DNA of 64,000 bases. Origin: Microcoleaceae cyanobacterium (lineage in GTDB: Bacteria > Cyanobacteriota > Cyanobacteriia > Cyanobacteriales > Microcoleaceae). Shown here piece after piece: positions 51,238 through 63,453 of this stretch; position 1 is the first letter of the stretch, and each line of letters begins with the position of its first letter. Location of the stretch: positions 32,001 through 96,000 of the forward strand of contig JBOFUV010000052.1 in assembly GCA_051652765.1 (NCBI GenBank). The letters are read 5' to 3'. The notes under the pieces were generated by a model. The model saw nothing but the letters and a program-made list of their open reading frames with translations, was not told the origin of the DNA and did no database searches. The translations under genes and the position numbers were made by a program.

Positions 51238-54200
51238 ATGTTTACAACTTGTGATCTTCTGGGTTTTGCTAGTAATGTTTCCGGAAAGTCTAACTTTGAC
51301 CAGGGTGACATTCAGATTGACTCTCGAACCAATGGAGCAACAGTCGTTATTCTCGATCCGGGCGTAGCAGACTTCTCTAGCTTGATCGAGGGCATTACTT
51401 CAGGCGTTGAAGTATTTGTTCTAGGAACAATGCAGGATGGTGTTCGACAAATCACTGATATCCTCCGTAAATTCACGCAGGTCTCTGTTCTACACCTCAT
51501 TTCCCACGGAGCTCCCGGTTGCCTGAACCTAGGCAATAGCGTCCTCAGCCTCAATACTCTCTGTGACTACAAGGCTGAACTGCAAGCTTGGTCGGTGTCA
51601 GAATTGTTGATTTACGGCTGTAACGTTGCAGCGGGAGATGCCGGAACTGAATTCATCGAAAAACTTCACCAACTCACCGGAGCTGAAATTGCTGCGTCTG
51701 CTAGTTTAACAGGCTGCGCTGCCCTGGGTGGGGATTGGAACCTCAACGTCAAAACTGGCAACGTTCAGGCTCTGCTTGTAGTAGACCCTAAAGTTAGGAA
51801 TGCTTACAATCACGTTCTTGCTACTTTCAATTTCAATGATTTTGACTGGCCCAGTGGTGATCGGACTTTCTCACAGGCCAATGTCGGAGGTACAGGTGTT
51901 GATTTTGACTTTGCTGCAATCGACCCTAATCAACCACCAACCATTCTTCTACCCAACCCTGATGTTCCAGACCCAGAAAACCCTGGCGTAAATCTTGATA
52001 TTGGGGATCAAAGCCTATTCACAGGAGGAATCGCCAATAACCAAGAGAGCTTGTTTATCAGCATCAATCCAAGGAGCAGAGGTCAAGGGATCACAGTTAC
52101 AGTTGACTTCAGCGAGCCTCTGTTTGGGGTCAATTTTTTCCTGATTGATATCGATGATTCATCTAACTGGCAAGACCAGATTATTGTTGGGGGTGATAAC
52201 AATGGTTTGCTGATTAAGCCAACAGTAACTAGCGGGGACACAACAGGGAATCCATCGCTGACAATTGACAACAGTGCTGCTAGTACAGTAAGTATCCTTG
52301 GCCAAGGAAATATTAATTCTCCTGCAGATTCTAATCAAGGTACAGCCCTAGTTGAGTTTAATGCTCCAATTACTCAAGTTATCATTACCTTCCAAGACGG
52401 CCCCGGTGCTGTTAACAATCCAGGTGATCACGGGATTGGCCTGTTCGGGGTGATTAACTTTACGAGCATTTCAATTGGTGATGTTACGGTTAATGAAGCA
52501 GATAATACAGCGACCTTTACGGTAACGTCTTCTGCTCCCGCTGGTGCAGCAGGCATCAACTTTGATTTTGCAACAACAGATGGAACAGCGATCGCTCCAG
52601 AAGATTACACCGCTACAACAGGTGCAGGCATAATTGCGGCAGGATCAACAACCACAACGATTACGGTTCCTATCACTAATGATGTGTTAAGTGAGCCCAA
52701 TGAAACACTCAATGTCATCTTATCGAATGTTGTAGGCGCTGCGGTAGCTGATGGTAATGGCGTGGCGACAATTCTAGGTGGGTTCCCCATATCAGGTACC
52801 TTGTTTGAGGATACCGATAGCGGAGATGACCGTGACCCGGCGGAACCTGTTTTGCCCATTGGTATCACTGTTAACCTACTGCAAAATGGCAATGTAGTTG
52901 CCACAGTAGAGACCGATGCTAGCGGCAACTACACCTTTCCTGAGATTCCTAACGGTAGCTATACTGTCCAAGTTGATACGGCTGACCCACAAGTTCCTGC
53001 AGGATTTATACTGGGCACGCCTAATGATATCCCAGTAACTGTTAATAGTGCAGGTGCTGGAGATATTAACTTCGGGTTTGATCCAGCTCCCAACCAACCT
53101 CCAGATGCAATTAATGATGGCCCCCTGAATGTTACTCAGGATATTAGTCTACCGATTCCTTCAGCTCAGTTGTTAGGGAATGACACTGACCCAGAGGGAA
53201 ATCCACTTACGATTACCAGTGTCCAATCTGCTCAAAACGGAACGGTTACTCTTGACCCGATCACCGGCAATATTACCTTTGCCCCAGCTCCTGGGTACAA
53301 TGGCCCTGCCAGCTTCACCTATACCATTAGTGATGGCAACGGTGGGACTGATATTGCCACAGTTAGTATCAACGTTAATGCCCCTGGCAACATTCCTCCT
53401 GTAGCCGTTAATGATGGCAACATCACAGCATTCGATACGCCTGTAACTTTCAGTGTTATTGGGAATGACACCGATGTTGATGGTACGGTTCAGCCTGCTA
53501 CGGTAGACCTTGACCCTGGAACTGCGGGTGTACAAAACACGTTTACGGTTCCCAATGAAGGAACTTTCACAGTTGCCGCTAATGGAGAGGTTACCTTTGC
53601 CCCAGTTCCTGGGTTTACCGGCCCCTCGACAATTCCTTACACCGTTGCGGATGATGATGGAGCCGTTTCCAACCCCGCTAATATCTCAGTCACCGTTAAT
53701 CCGGCCAATGTTCCTCCTGTAGCCGTAGATTTCCCGATTAACATTCCTTCTGGGATTACTGACCCTACTGGCCTAAATGGCCCAAGGTTGTTACGCGGGG
53801 TTGATCCTAACGGAACTATTGAGAATGTTACAGTTGAGACTTTGCCTGATCCTGCTGATGGAGTGTTGTTGTTCCAGGGAAATCCTGTTAACGAAGGCCA
53901 AACCTTTAACCTAAATGAGGTGGGACTAATTGAGTTCCAGACTTCCCCTGAGTTCAATGGAGGAGTCTTTACCTACCTGGTTACTGATAATCAGGGTGCC
54001 AACTCTACTCCCGCAACCGTAACGTTAAACGCGGCTCCGACTGTTCAAAACGAAAGTGTTGACACTCCGTCTAATACGCCAACTACCCTGGATCTTACAG
54101 ATAACGTTAACGATCCCGATGGCACCGTTAACTTTGGAACCATTGACCTTGATCCAACAACTCCTGCAGTAGATAGCACCCGAGAGGTTCCAGGGGGGCG

Positions 54201-56013
54201 TTTCACAGTGGGTGACGATGGGACAACCGTAACCTTTACCCCCAATCCAGGGTTCCAGGGCACGGCAACGTTAGACTATGTTGTTCAGGATGATCTGGCT
54301 AACCTGTCCAATGTTGCTCAACTGGCTGTTACGGTTCAGGCTCCTGTACCCACTCCAACTCCAACCCCAACACCCACTCCAACTCCAACCCCAACACCCA
54401 CTCCAACTCCAACCCCAACCCCAACGCCCACTCCAACACCCACTCCGAATCAACCTCCTGTTGCAGAGAATCTGGATCAAACCATTGGGAACAATGGCAA
54501 TCCTGCTGATATCCCGAATCTAACAGGGACTGATCCGGATGGTACTGTAGTTTCTTTTGCTATTATCGATCTCCCTGACCCTTCAGAAGGCGTTTTGGTA
54601 CTGGATGGACAAGAAATCACAAGCCTGGAGCAAGTTGCAGAGTTAACCCCTGAGCAAACGGGTCAACTGCAGTTCCAACCTGCTGATGACTTTGCTGGGG
54701 AGATTTCGTTCACCTACGTGGCCAAGGACAATGACGGAGCCAGATCTAACGCAGCCACGGTAACCCTAGAGGTTGAAGGGCCAGAGATTCCCAGGAATGA
54801 GCCGGGTGGGAATGGCGCTTGTGATTGCCCGCCGTTCCCTGTAATTCCGGGAATTGACCTGCCTGCCCGTCCAAATACGACCCAAATACCTAGACTCTTG
54901 GGCACAGTTGGAAATGATGCCTTACTGGGAACGGCTGCAGGTGAGGTAATGACAGCCTTGGGCGGGAATGACCTAGTTCTTGCCTTAGATGGGAATGACG
55001 GGGTCTTTGGCGGCAGCGAAAATGACCTGATCTTCGGGGATAGTGGCAATGATCTCTTGTTCGGTGAAACGGGCAACGACACGATCATCGGCAGCAACAG
55101 CAATGGCACAGACGTTCCTGTGGGTACGGAAGTTGATGTTATCCACGGCAACAACAACGATGATCTAATGCAAGGTGGCCCCGGCAATGACTTCATCTAT
55201 GGAGGTGAAGACAATGACTTTGCCTATGGAGGTCGCGGCAATGACCAAATGTGGGGTGACTTTGGCAGCGACACACTATTTGGGGATCAGGGAAATGACA
55301 CCCTGTTTGGGGATTACAAGGTCTCTGAACAGTTCACCTTTGAAGGGCCAGATATTATGCTGGGTGGCACTGGTGATGACATGATCAGTGGCAACCGCGA
55401 CAATGATACTCTCAGTGGAGGAGATGGGGCAGATACCCTGTACGGTGGTGAAGAAGACGATCTTCTCCATGGCGACACTGGGAATGATCTGATGTATGGA
55501 GATCTAGGTGCTGATCATCTCTGTGGAGATGCTGGAGACGATACCCTGTTCGGAGACTTGGACGTTCCTAGTTCAAGTGCGACTCCTGGGACAGGGCCAG
55601 ATACACTTTCTGGCGGGGAAGGGAATGATTTGCTACTTAGCAACGAGGCCGAAGATGAACTGTGTGGGGGCAGTGGCAATGACACTTTATACAGCGGTCA
55701 GGGTGCCGATAACCTCAGTGGTGGTAGCGGTGAAGATTGGCTCCTGGGTGACCAAGGCAATGACACAATGTCTGGGGGAGAAGGCGGCGATCGCTTTATT
55801 CTCTTCCTCGAAGATGGCACTGATACCCTGACGGACTTCCGAATTGACCTCGATTTGATTGCTTTGGGTGGTAGCCTTACCTTTGAGCAATTGACTTTAA
55901 CTCAGAATGGCACTTCTACACTGATCAGTTCAGGTGGTCAAGATTTAGCGGTGTTGACTGGGGTTCAGGTGAGTTCTCTCACGTCAGACAATTTCATCTC
56001 CTTCGCTGGTTAG
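51238..56013 (+). CDS. Large Ca-binding surface protein: DUF4347, Calx-beta, SdrD/Cna-B-like, cadherin/Ig repeats, PT linker, RTX repeats
   Basis: HLISHGAPG/LLIYGCNVAAG/GGDWNL (DUF4347); T.DGTA.APEDY..EPNET (Calx-beta); NQPPDA.ND, FTYTISDGNGG; many GG.GND.L.G nonapeptides. Confidence 0.92.
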   Translation: MFTTCDLLGFASNVSGKSNFDQGDIQIDSRTNGATVVILDPGVADFSSLIEGITSGVEVFVLGTMQDGVRQITDILRKFTQVSVLHLISHGAPGCLNLGNSVLSLNTLCDYKAELQAWSVSELLIYGCNVAAGDAGTEFIEKLHQLTGAEIAASASLTGCAALGGDWNLNVKTGNVQALLVVDPKVRNAYNHVLATFNFNDFDWPSGDRTFSQANVGGTGVDFDFAAIDPNQPPTILLPNPDVPDPENPGVNLDIGDQSLFTGGIANNQESLFISINPRSRGQGITVTVDFSEPLFGVNFFLIDIDDSSNWQDQIIVGGDNNGLLIKPTVTSGDTTGNPSLTIDNSAASTVSILGQGNINSPADSNQGTALVEFNAPITQVIITFQDGPGAVNNPGDHGIGLFGVINFTSISIGDVTVNEADNTATFTVTSSAPAGAAGINFDFATTDGTAIAPEDYTATTGAGIIAAGSTTTTITVPITNDVLSEPNETLNVILSNVVGAAVADGNGVATILGGFPISGTLFEDTDSGDDRDPAEPVLPIGITVNLLQNGNVVATVETDASGNYTFPEIPNGSYTVQVDTADPQVPAGFILGTPNDIPVTVNSAGAGDINFGFDPAPNQPPDAINDGPLNVTQDISLPIPSAQLLGNDTDPEGNPLTITSVQSAQNGTVTLDPITGNITFAPAPGYNGPASFTYTISDGNGGTDIATVSINVNAPGNIPPVAVNDGNITAFDTPVTFSVIGNDTDVDGTVQPATVDLDPGTAGVQNTFTVPNEGTFTVAANGEVTFAPVPGFTGPSTIPYTVADDDGAVSNPANISVTVNPANVPPVAVDFPINIPSGITDPTGLNGPRLLRGVDPNGTIENVTVETLPDPADGVLLFQGNPVNEGQTFNLNEVGLIEFQTSPEFNGGVFTYLVTDNQGANSTPATVTLNAAPTVQNESVDTPSNTPTTLDLTDNVNDPDGTVNFGTIDLDPTTPAVDSTREVPGGRFTVGDDGTTVTFTPNPGFQGTATLDYVVQDDLANLSNVAQLAVTVQAPVPTPTPTPTPTPTPTPTPTPTPTPTPTPTPTPTPNQPPVAENLDQTIGNNGNPADIPNLTGTDPDGTVVSFAIIDLPDPSEGVLVLDGQEITSLEQVAELTPEQTGQLQFQPADDFAGEISFTYVAKDNDGARSNAATVTLEVEGPEIPRNEPGGNGACDCPPFPVIPGIDLPARPNTTQIPRLLGTVGNDALLGTAAGEVMTALGGNDLVLALDGNDGVFGGSENDLIFGDSGNDLLFGETGNDTIIGSNSNGTDVPVGTEVDVIHGNNNDDLMQGGPGNDFIYGGEDNDFAYGGRGNDQMWGDFGSDTLFGDQGNDTLFGDYKVSEQFTFEGPDIMLGGTGDDMISGNRDNDTLSGGDGADTLYGGEEDDLLHGDTGNDLMYGDLGADHLCGDAGDDTLFGDLDVPSSSATPGTGPDTLSGGEGNDLLLSNEAEDELCGGSGNDTLYSGQGADNLSGGSGEDWLLGDQGNDTMSGGEGGDRFILFLEDGTDTLTDFRIDLDLIALGGSLTFEQLTLTQNGTSTLISSGGQDLAVLTGVQVSSLTSDNFISFAG
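54349..54447 (+). repeat. (Pro-Thr) x ~16 linker encoded by 24-bp/6-bp tandem repeats
   Basis: CCCACTCCAACTCCAACCCCAACA about three times plus variants. Confidence 0.95.
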
Positions 56014-58652: not shown

Positions 58653-59294
58653 CTAGCGTTCGTTGTAGCAGTCATAGGGGTTTTGGGGTGAACAGTAATT
58701 GATATTACGGTTGTTGCGATTGCCCCGTCCATAGTCCCGCTGGTCATAACGTCGATCATAGCGACCGTTATCGCCATTTAATCTGCGATCACGGTTGTTA
58801 TTCTCGTCGAAGTTACGATAGCGCTCTCTGACCTCTCGGTCATTATAGCGATCGTTATAACGGTCGTCATTGCGATTATCGTAACGATCATCATCATGAC
58901 GGCGATCATAACGATCATCATCACGACGGCGATCATAACGGTCATCATCACGATCGCGACTATCGCTGTATCGTTCTCTCCAGTCCTCTTCTTCCCGATC
59001 AAGCTCTTTATCCAGGGCTTTGTGAGCGTCCCGGATAATGCGCTCTTTCTCCTTTTGAGATAAGCGACGATTATGAGACTGGTTCATCTCACTGTTAATT
59101 TGCTGATCCAGTTCCAGGTGACGGCGACGCTGATAATCGTCCCAAGCATCAGCCACCAGAACGCCTCGACCTTGAGACAATTCAGAGACTGAACGGATTG
59201 AGTTAGTGCGATTTGGATAGACAGGTGCAGCCATAGTAGGAAGGACTGAACCTGTAACCATCAGAAGGGTAACAATTGTTAAGACCGATTTCAT
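58653..59294 (-). CDS. Secreted Asp/Arg/Tyr-rich low-complexity repeat protein
   Basis: Signal peptide; DDDRYDRR(R/H) repeats; GAGGAGG RBS. Confidence 0.8.
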   Translation of the reverse strand: MKSVLTIVTLLMVTGSVLPTMAAPVYPNRTNSIRSVSELSQGRGVLVADAWDDYQRRRHLELDQQINSEMNQSHNRRLSQKEKERIIRDAHKALDKELDREEEDWRERYSDSRDRDDDRYDRRRDDDRYDRRHDDDRYDNRNDDRYNDRYNDREVRERYRNFDENNNRDRRLNGDNGRYDRRYDQRDYGRGNRNNRNINYCSPQNPYDCYNER

Positions 59295-61600: not shown

Positions 61601-62695
61601 ATGACTCAAATCTGTCGCATTACCCTGCTTCCTGGAGATGGCATTGGCCCTGAAATTATCAAGGTTGCGGTGGACGTTCTTCAAGGGATGGAACAGGAGT
61701 TTGATTTGCAGTTTGACTTCCAGGAGGCGCTGATTGGTGGGGCTGCCATTGATGCAACAGGAGAACCGCTTCCCGTAGAGTCTTTAGAACAGTGCCGGAG
61801 AAGCCATGCTGTCTTGCTCGCCGCAATTGGGGGGTATAAGTGGGATAACTTGCCTCGATCTCAGCGCCCAGAAACAGGCTTGCTTGGGCTGAGAGCTGGC
61901 TTAGAACTATTTGCGAATCTGCGTCCCGCTACTATTTTGCCCCATCTGATCGATGCCTCGACCCTAAAACGGGAGGTGGTTGAGGGGGTAGATATTATGG
62001 TAGTTCGGGAATTGACCGGGGGAATTTACTTCGGTCAACCCAAAGGAATTTTTACCCTAGAGACTGGAGAAAAACGCGGGGTGAATACCATGGCCTATAC
62101 AGAGTCAGAGATTGACCGCATTGGCCGAGTTGCTTTTGAGACGGCCCGCAAGCGTCAAGGCCGGTTGTGTTCTGTGGATAAGGCGAATGTATTGGATGTG
62201 TCTCAGTTGTGGCGCGATCGCATGATGACTCTTTCTGCCCAGTATCCAGACGTAGAACTGTCCCACCTCTATGTGGACAATGCCGCTATGCAGTTAGTCC
62301 GATGGCCAAAACAGTTTGATACCATCGTAACTGGGAATTTATTCGGGGATATTCTGTCGGATGCAGCGGCGATGTTAACAGGAAGTATCGGCATGTTGCC
62401 CTCAGCCAGTTTGGGAGAGTCGGGGCCAGGGGTATTTGAACCCGTTCATGGATCTGCCCCTGATATCGCCGGACAGGACAAGGCCAATCCTCTAGCCCAA
62501 GTTCTGAGTGCGGCCATGATGTTGCGCTACGGTCTCGACCAGCCTAGGGCAGCCGATCGGATCGAACGAGCCGTTCTCAAGGTGCTTGACCAGGGCTATC
62601 GAACCGGAGATATTATGTCCGAGGGTATGAAATTAGTTGGATGTCGAGCCATGGGAGACGCTTTACTGGCAGTATTGGCAGGGTCTGAAGTTTAG
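61601..62695 (+). CDS. leuB: 3-isopropylmalate dehydrogenase
   Basis: [45 protein letters not shown]. Confidence 0.97.
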
Positions 62696-63453
62696 GGCAA
62701 ATTGAGGGAAAGACCTAACTCATGGAAGTTTTGGGGAGCCCAGAAGTAGTTTGGGTTCGTGACGCGAGCCTGATCTAGTTTAATGCCTTCGGCGACTAAC
62801 TGTTCAGCTTGGTCAGGAATATAGCGAGTTAAAAGACCGCCATCGACTTTGATAATTCGATGAATTGGCAGTTCATGAACCGCTTGCTTGAGAAAACCAG
62901 GAATGGCTCGATAGTAAGCCGCAGAGACTCCCAATGCCAGTAAGAGATCAGCAGTCTTGACTACTTTTCCCTCAGGAATGCGCGGCACAAACTCCCAAAA
63001 CCTTGCTTTTGCAGTATCACCCAGGGCTGGAAATTGAGAGGACGTTAAGACGATTTCATCCCCCAGAACGATGCGACCGCTGTTCACAATCATTCCTAGA
63101 AATCCCCGTTGGGTTTTAATCCGCTGCATCAATCCGGGCTGAATTTTTTCTAAATTTTTACAGGGTTCGCAATGAAACGTTAACCGAACTAAGGCATCTA
63201 AACCAATTTGTAAAACTTGACCCGATTTAAATCCTGCAATCGAGTCATCAACAAGTAAATTTTCTCTCAGAGCACCAGGATTCACCTGAAACTCTGAGAG
63301 TGTTCTCTGACTGACTAAAAGAATTTGGCGGGGACTCCCAACTTGGGCCTGAATATCATTTTCTATTCCTACCCCAGCTCTCAAACTTAAAACTGAACAC
63401 TCTGTTGTCGGTTCCCCAGGGACAAATTTCTGATAAAGTTGCTTAACTTTCAT
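62692..63453 (-). CDS. MOSC domain fused to alkyltransferase-like (Ogt/ATL) DNA-binding domain
   Basis: RENLLV, CEPC, RGFLG....GRIVLGD (MOSC); [22 protein letters not shown]...LVAEGI (AGT/ATL fold). Confidence 0.8.

Follow-up and report, generated by a model that had tools for sequence, protein, structure and literature searches.

Among the described proteins with a MOSC domain, the architectures named in the part of a review consulted are YiiM, YuaD, YcbX, mARC, sulfurase, MoaB and XdhC, with a MOSC-ATL combination absent from that part (PMC10637980). The same text reports that 6-HAP, N4-hydroxycytosine and their nucleosides are reduced by MOSC enzymes, presents the natural substrates of MOSC proteins as an open question, and notes that the physiological occurrence of N-hydroxylated bases has been questioned (PMC10637980). 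E. coli defends itself against HAP with RdgB, endonuclease V and a Moco activity, according to an excerpt of another study (PMC1173102). For AGT and ATL proteins, only EndoV and histone-like fusions are named in the sections consulted of a review on that group (PMC10779285). Full-text literature searches, judged by titles and the first lines of abstracts, returned no paper on a MOSC-ATL fusion, a passing mention in a full text being possible. Here we describe such a fusion, which represents an old, widespread and apparently undescribed MOSC architecture. Our preferred reading, to which we give slightly less than an even chance, is that of a single-chain Moco reductase which uses a remodelled ATL helix-turn-helix (HTH) to reach nucleic acid and restores N-oxygenated bases within the polymer.

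The gene was found in a window of 64,000 nucleotides (the whole stretch of DNA analyzed) from a Microcoleaceae cyanobacterium, at positions 62692..63453 of the minus strand, with an ATG start and a product of 253 aa (P0001 from here on). Its stop codon and that of a convergent leuB-type gene (61601-62695, plus strand) share a 4-base overlap, a cheA-type gene (named from its sequence) lies upstream, and a promoter scan of the coding strand found none upstream of the fusion gene. The GC3 value is 0.38, compared to 0.47-0.51 in the two neighbors, which gives a weak compositional hint of possible transfer. The same window codes for a 213-aa protein with a signal-peptide-like start, a long Arg/Asp/Tyr repeat and no Pfam match (58653-59294, minus strand), and for a secreted-adhesin-like protein (named from its sequence) of 1591 aa with Pro-Thr repeats and terminal Gly/Asp-rich repeats (51238-56013, plus strand). 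The host genome contains moaA, above its cut-off, and also encodes a separate Ogt, an ATL and a YcbX-type MOSC protein, so that the fusion is an added function that replaces none of these. The ordinary ATL of the host (L002:1420-1839, outside the window) shows PWQR where PWHR is expected, and the same Gln is seen in 9 of 24 stand-alone AGT/ATL sequences from genomes of the cyanobacterial phylum, the set used for all comparisons below.

The N-terminal half (residues 1-141; 63031..63453, minus strand) is assigned by Pfam and structure matches to a MOSC domain of the YuaD/YiiM fold without MOSC_N. Pfam MOSC (PF03473) matches residues 51-134 with E 5.6e-8 and 33.3 bits, against a cut-off of 22.7, and residues 1-142 of the AlphaFold2 model align with YuaD at Z 19.2 (rmsd 2.0, 139 residues aligned), followed by gsYiiM (Z 16.1) and mARC1 (Z 14.9). 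P0001 has no Pfam match to MOSC_N, its MOSC fold beginning at residue 1, and none at E up to 1 to PF03475, the C-terminal 3-alpha domain of YiiM. A sequence-only reading of this DNA had already proposed an N-terminal MOSC domain with a CEPC motif, and it was right in both, with the refinement that the MOSC-defining Cys is the second one, Cys98. In the family alignment (275 rows with many close Nostoc sequences, effective number 213) this motif, C95-E-P-C98 (63160..63171, minus strand), retains Cys98 in 275/275 rows and C95 in 271/275; conservation, together with the pairing of Cys98 with the Cys of the YiiM QPRxxC motif, makes Cys98 the predicted Mo ligand. R116 is present in 275/275 rows and N65 in 270/275. 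The loop S40-P41-R42 (63328..63336, minus strand) is kept in 240, 252 and 269 of the 275 rows, respectively, and contacts and alignment assign to it both the docking site of the ATL turn (S-P) and an Arg, R42, aligned to the cofactor-pocket Arg of the YiiM type. The Cys, Arg and Asn matching Cys98, Arg42 and Asn65 belong to the cofactor cavity of a YiiM-type protein, in the excerpt consulted of its structural description (PMC5818509). The MOSC half thus looks live, its cofactor-site residues being intact in sequence and model, and would be expected to load Mo. Among the carrier genomes, moaA was above its cut-off in 45 of 48; of the remaining three, one has a partial match close to the edge of a contig and two, both MAGs, have no moaA. 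All three Bacteroidota carriers have moaA, versus 145 of 301 genomes phylum-wide, which lends weak support to the use of Moco.

The C-terminal half (ATL-fold domain, residues 148-247; 62713..63012, minus strand) was identified by Pfam, structure match and family profile. The Pfam DNA_binding_1 (AGT/ATL) match at residues 150-223 (E 7.2e-6, 26.2 bits) is just below the cut-off of 27, and the same stretch scores 28.8 bits, above the cut-off, in a six-frame search of the genome. The profile built from the family matches S. pombe Atl1 at E 2.6e-11 and the V. parahaemolyticus ATL at E 2.2e-10. Residues 145-240 of the model align with the Atl1-DNA structure 3gx4 at Z 12.7 (rmsd 2.0, 94 residues aligned), and the domain is closer to ATLs than to any AGT (Z 12.7 for Atl1, 12.1 for the V. 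parahaemolyticus ATL and 10.0 for human AGT). The AGT/ATL-like C-terminal domain of the sequence-only reading is therefore real, as are the PIHR and KTA motifs that it quoted; "dead", the word that it used for this domain, is correct in that a catalytic Cys is missing, but the domain is remodelled, not simply dead, as far as its conserved residues tell. The pocket motif P196-I-H-R199 (62857..62868, minus strand, by alignment) has Ile197 where AGTs have the catalytic Cys of PCHR and ATLs a Trp; the family residues at this site are Val, Ile, Ala or Leu, with Cys in 2 of 101 full-length scorable representatives. In contrast, the Arg finger, Arg182, is kept in 270/275 rows. It belongs to a modified HTH turn and recognition helix, G175-x6-R182-x2-P185 (62899..62931, minus strand, by alignment), in which the spacing before the Arg finger is 6 in 266 of 268 fusions versus 5 in 22 of 24 stand-alone proteins, and the third residue beyond it is Pro in 272/275 fusions versus Gly in 21 of 24; the canonical turn and the R-x-V-G recognition helix are absent from P0001. 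Another change concerns Thr167 (62953..62955, minus strand), aligned to the gatekeeper tyrosine. The replacement of this Tyr had been pointed out from the sequence and holds for P0001, but not for the family, in which Tyr or Phe is kept in 122 of 147 representatives with a residue there. Across the 275 fusion rows the position is Tyr in 172, Thr in 59 and Phe in 24 (Tyr in 24/24 stand-alone proteins), and Thr167 is the mark of a 16-row clade holding P0001 (SH-aLRT 94 in a quick tree), the loss of the gatekeeper being a trait of this clade. The ATL-type C-terminal extension carries Trp238 (62740..62742, minus strand), singled out by conservation and found in 129 of 132 representatives, members without a pocket included (see below). 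The net charge of the C-domain is +1 in P0001 versus a family median of +3.

These residues bear on an alternative that we consider quite improbable, namely that the chain combines two independent activities, those of a MOSC enzyme and of an unrelated, ordinary ATL by which O6-alkylguanine is marked for excision repair. It would be consistent with an HR motif in 103 of the 143 representatives with a long enough tail (a regex count that misses variant motifs) and with the 3 of 31 carriers in which the fusion is the only AGT/ATL-domain match. However, a Trp at the pocket site is found in 0 of the 101 full-length scorable representatives, the pocket has been lost repeatedly, the host has its own Ogt and ATL, and the interface predicted between the halves is tight, with family-specific residues on both sides.

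The AlphaFold2 model of P0001 has a pLDDT of 95.3 and a pTM of 0.90. Folded as two separate chains, the halves dock with a score of 0.87, versus 0.00 for the best control, with runs agreeing in at least 96% of contacts and a partner pLDDT of at least 93; the docking mark was reached by 116 of 157 solved pairs and by 2 of 215 mismatched pairs. Since the docked chains are halves of one protein, this speaks for a defined arrangement and not for binding between separate proteins. MOSC residues 26-27, 37-42, 76-78, and 90-96 are predicted to meet ATL residues 142-146, 151, 172-175, and 240-247, the S40-P41-R42 loop contacting 172-175 in the model and residues 240-247, beyond Trp238, packing on MOSC. 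Neither the recognition helix (178-190) nor the pocket (196-212) is among the predicted MOSC-interface residues. Covariation, shallow (275 rows, effective 213) and used as a cross-check only, places 37-172 and the weak pair 93-151 among the top inter-domain pairs, beside others not in the model. Arg151 of ATL helix 1 (63001..63003, minus strand) contacts MOSC residues 41 and 93; it is present in 258/275 fusion rows versus 9 of 24 stand-alone proteins and would line the Moco phosphate site. The predictions suggest that the two domains probably pack as one rigid unit. The residues that hold the complementary strand in hAGT (N123) and in SsOGT (R72 of helix H2), as given in the portion of the literature consulted (PMC4605297), have their P0001 equivalents beside the MOSC interface. 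MOSC would therefore meet the opposite-strand patch of AGTs and not their pocket, which would put the Mo on the side of the HTH turn, away from the pocket.

The same model can be read in a different manner. Residues 1-149 align structurally with ecYiiM 3-203, continuing into ATL helix 1, and a pocket-less member (14-169) aligns with ecYiiM 0-206, where, if in register, its invariant Trp164 would fall on W201; both overlays are read from the ends of the ranges, not from residue pairs. In YiiM, S200 and W201 bind a cofactor-like phosphate, in the excerpt consulted (PMC5818509), and the models suggest that ATL helix 1 replaces this phosphate-binding, cofactor-pocket helix. The protein could thus, like YiiM, serve detoxification by reducing N-hydroxylated bases, nucleosides or nucleotides in their free form. 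The ATL part, recruited like the YiiM 3-alpha bundle, would then be a lid on the Moco cleft and bind no polymer, with Arg182, Tyr180, and Pro185 shaping a small-molecule site. Although we hold this to be the less probable of the two, such clean-up of free nucleotides is almost as likely as polymer repair, at perhaps one chance in three. The continuation of both YiiM alignments into helix 1 speaks for it, but the overlay is known from range ends without residue pairs, and the host already has a second MOSC protein.

A part of the family has lost the pocket altogether. In 25 of 126 scorable representatives (24 of 150 were not scorable, and one of the 25, with a distance of 4, is probably misaligned) the stretch between Arg182 and the terminal Trp measures less than 40 residues, these proteins having lost the pocket motif together with its loop and the helix after it. 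This distance is a better measure of the pocket than the HR regex, which counts variant motifs as missing. All 25 keep Tyr, Phe or His at position 167, and one small clade is without both pocket and gatekeeper. The short forms occupy two or more separate regions of the quick tree, which is unrooted, with 73 of 147 inner branches open by SH-aLRT, and from which no order of events is drawn. A metagenome scan aimed at one pocket-less clade gave 67 loci, many of them near-duplicates; of the 62 reading frames that contain the search motif, all terminate in a stop codon and P-x-H-R is found in none. One pocket-less protein folds with a confidence like that of P0001 (pLDDT 93.3, pTM 0.89), and this good fold, the altered HTH, the recurrent loss of the pocket and the lack of a repair operon (see below) all fit this reading of a monomer reductase with a lid. 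In the pocket-less clade of alignment A4 (e.g., L122:4977-5702), the residue that immediately precedes the Arg finger is an invariant Cys (Y-C-R-x-F-P), and an invariant Trp marks the beginning of helix 1. In three metagenome loci the pocket-less fusion is followed, on the same strand, by the gene for an unannotated protein of ~290 aa (L149:5936-6814, L150:5882-6784, and L164:1463-2332). From the sequence alone it had been proposed that one protein recognizes a damaged base and acts on it by Moco chemistry. Of this, the two domains and their union in one unit stand, while an ATL pocket that feeds the molybdenum is unsupported, because the pocket is off the MOSC interface, its lining is changed and whole clades delete it.

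The fusion is broadly but patchily distributed. A word-based search gave 49 matches among 2832 candidates, most with both Pfam domains; a GTDB scan yielded 197 loci, of which 80 were kept, mostly from cyanobacteria, plus Mucilaginibacter, Saprospiraceae, and Blastocatellia; and an exhaustive search with a profile returned 250 clusters (50% identity, E up to 1e-30), the best 150 of which are the representatives used here. The 197 loci and 250 clusters rule out a one-off or accidental fusion, which the earlier reading had left as a point to check. EukProt and MMETSP (algal transcripts) contain members, one labelled Gymnodinium catenatum, and nine plasmids carry the fusion. Within the host phylum it was found at full length in 10 of 401 genomes, one of them the host itself; the 26 other genomes of its family gave none. 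The architecture does not escape annotation, as members carry database labels such as "MGMT family" or "MOSC domain-containing". The word-based search, of low sensitivity, gave one candidate for a stand-alone altered ATL domain, and none scored. Four pattern matches were seen in viral contigs, none of them confirmed as phage carriage. No fusion with an added electron donor appeared among 8000 candidates of 644-2000 aa (a weak search), and the best 150 of the 250 clusters are all of 398 aa or less, with no fused electron-transfer domain seen. Another AGT or ATL is present in 28 of 31 carriers.

Past genus-level synteny, no conserved operon was found in the 80 genome loci, and no conserved repair-gene neighborhood among 111 neighbors classified by Pfam or in a metagenome sample scanned by NCBIfam (56 of 100 candidates, from 31 of 67 loci). 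PF05014 (nucleoside deoxyribosyltransferase), present in 8 of 32 genomes, was in no case near the fusion, and the two CxxxCxxC proteins encoded in the loci, considered as a possible radical SAM link, are not adjacent to it. In three independent contexts, all cyanobacterial, NUDIX genes are at most two genes away from the fusion, which would suit the clean-up of free nucleotides, but this link was chosen post hoc among the 111 neighbors. Pointing in the same direction, one close stand-alone MOSC relative is flanked by purD-like and purE-like genes (L191:1456-1953), an apparent purine-biosynthesis cluster, and another is downstream of a flavin-reductase-like gene (L190:1507-2789), all named from sequence. 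Mo-related genes adjoin pocket-less members in three contexts, being a Mop-domain gene (L132), a ModA-type gene (L138) and a divergent xanthine-dehydrogenase-type operon (L156 and L160). They could indicate that the fusion carries Moco or senses Moco or redox state, without catalysis, and that cofactor load governs the binding of its HTH to DNA or to a partner; the lack of a fused electron-transfer domain would also agree with this. We consider such a role unlikely, as a fused donor is also missing in YuaD and YiiM, AGT/ATL HTHs bind without sequence specificity, as stated in the review sections consulted (PMC10779285), and pocket-bearing loci have no Mo-related neighbors among 111 genes, save one YiiM-reductase gene (L078). 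Several other neighborhoods deserve description. Directly upstream of the fusion, two phyla (L036:2678-6001, Mucilaginibacter; L039:3949-5142 and L073:5066-5995, Blastocatellia) encode a protein of 310-330 aa that has no clear Pfam family and consists of two repeated halves resembling zinc ribbons; in L036 its gene comes after genes for multi-ubiquitin, E2 family E and ThiF, which make up a bacterial ubiquitin-like operon. One Blastocatellia MAG (G034) has three copies of the fusion (L039, L073, and L078), one converging on a YiiM-flavin reductase-ferredoxin gene and another adjoining conjugation genes. In L009:4888-11735 an Rnl2-type RNA ligase gene precedes the fusion in the same orientation; an ARPP-2 gene and a 508-aa unnamed partner are nearby.

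With both domains real, the family widespread, the Moco site intact-looking and the halves forming one unit, a Moco enzyme engaging nucleic acid is a serious reading. In our preferred reading, the reduction of bases within the polymer, the MOSC fold with its intact cofactor-site residues would hold Mo, and ATL helix 1 and the HTH turn would close the Moco cleft, as the model predicts. The unburied face (Arg182, the aromatic residue at 167 and basic residues at 189/190) may grip nucleic acid, as conservation and homology suggest. The base might then reach the Mo not in the ATL pocket but on the HTH-turn side, the place at which AGTs bind the strand that faces the flipped base; this is the weakest step. 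A separate carrier would donate the electrons. Candidate substrates, to be converted to the normal base, would be N6-hydroxyadenine, its 2-amino form, N4-hydroxycytosine or a base N-oxide. In HAP and N4-hydroxycytosine the N-hydroxylation affects the ring positions that AGT/ATL proteins read (purine 6, pyrimidine 4). Lys or Arg is found at 189 in 208/275 rows and at 190 in 192/275, and Tyr or Phe at 167 in 196/275. None of these positions, nor Arg182, is listed in the predicted MOSC interface; they are spread along the AGT/ATL DNA-binding face, which fits an extended polyanion better than a small molecule. The motif K-K/R-x-K/R occurs in the terminal extensions of five of 51 proteins and in none of the other 46 (0.56 expected by shuffling); the bearers are two with a eukaryote source, two grouping with such proteins in the tree and one of unknown origin. 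Although this set was noticed because of the motif, the source on record is eukaryotic in only two of the five, and two eukaryote-associated members (P0113 and P0131) have no extension long enough to score, these nuclear-localisation-like motifs, confined to eukaryote-associated members, may add support for action on nucleic acid. A lid would need neither these motifs nor the distant residues 167 and 189/190.

Against repair in the polymer, the HTH is altered throughout the family, with a longer turn and with Pro185 in place of a Gly that would be needed to bind the minor groove, a change that may impair such binding. The N-terminal helix and C-terminal extension of ATLs contact DNA, according to the review sections consulted (PMC10779285), and both partly pack on MOSC here, so MOSC could clash with duplex DNA. 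The pocket is lost in 25 of 126 scorable representatives, no repair operon or electron donor was found in the searches above, and 28 of the 31 carriers tested already have another AGT or ATL. P0001 is a weaker DNA-binding candidate than the family at large, because of Thr167 and its nearly neutral C-domain. That the family as a whole is a molybdoenzyme doing direct-reversal repair of N-hydroxylated or N-oxidised bases in DNA or RNA, from cyanobacteria to algal nuclei, we regard as possible, leaning against it. To our knowledge, no molybdenum enzyme acts on a nucleic-acid polymer, and if true this would add a categorically new chemistry to the repair routes of alkyl transfer, oxidative demethylation and photolysis. 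The protein is small, soluble and made of one chain, with its Moco site next to a face predicted to bind DNA, and would make the reversal of N-hydroxylated bases in DNA testable, with the pocket-bearing and pocket-less forms as a natural pair for comparison. Even if only monomers are reduced, this is a new MOSC architecture in which a DNA-repair domain would have been reused as part of an enzyme active site.

Compared with the described systems, the fusion is most similar in its MOSC half to B. subtilis YuaD (1ORU) and to YiiM of E. coli and G. stearothermophilus (5YHI and 5YHH), with which it shares a MOSC barrel without MOSC_N, the invariant Cys, the pocket Arg and Asn, and a C-terminal helix by which the cofactor cleft seems to be closed. 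It differs from them (~20% identity) in having an ATL fold at the C-terminus, where YiiM has its 3-alpha bundle and others nothing, and in the phosphate-binding Gln, mostly Phe here with Arg151 beside it. The MOSC fold is also that of mARC1/2 and E. coli YcbX, which reduce N-hydroxylated bases and nucleosides, as described in the review text consulted (PMC10637980), an activity only proposed for the fusion. Unlike these enzymes, reported to be active on free molecules and not on polymers, it has no MOSC_N, no ferredoxin domain and no known donor. With the ATLs of S. pombe and V. parahaemolyticus it shares the fold, the missing catalytic Cys, an Arg finger preceded by Tyr and a C-terminal extension with Trp, but it has Val, Ile, Ala or Leu in place of the pocket Trp and G-x6-R-x2-P in place of G-x5-R-x-V-G, has lost the Gly of TYG and the Asn after the motif, can dispense with the pocket and has an enzyme fused to it. 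The closest precedents in design are AGT-EndoV and archaeal ATL-EndoV, in which an AGT/ATL module is joined to an enzyme of damaged bases, as far as the review sections consulted describe them (PMC10779285); whereas their partner is a nuclease, the MOSC-ATL fusion has a redox metallo-enzyme in this place, and would restore the base with no need for a cut.
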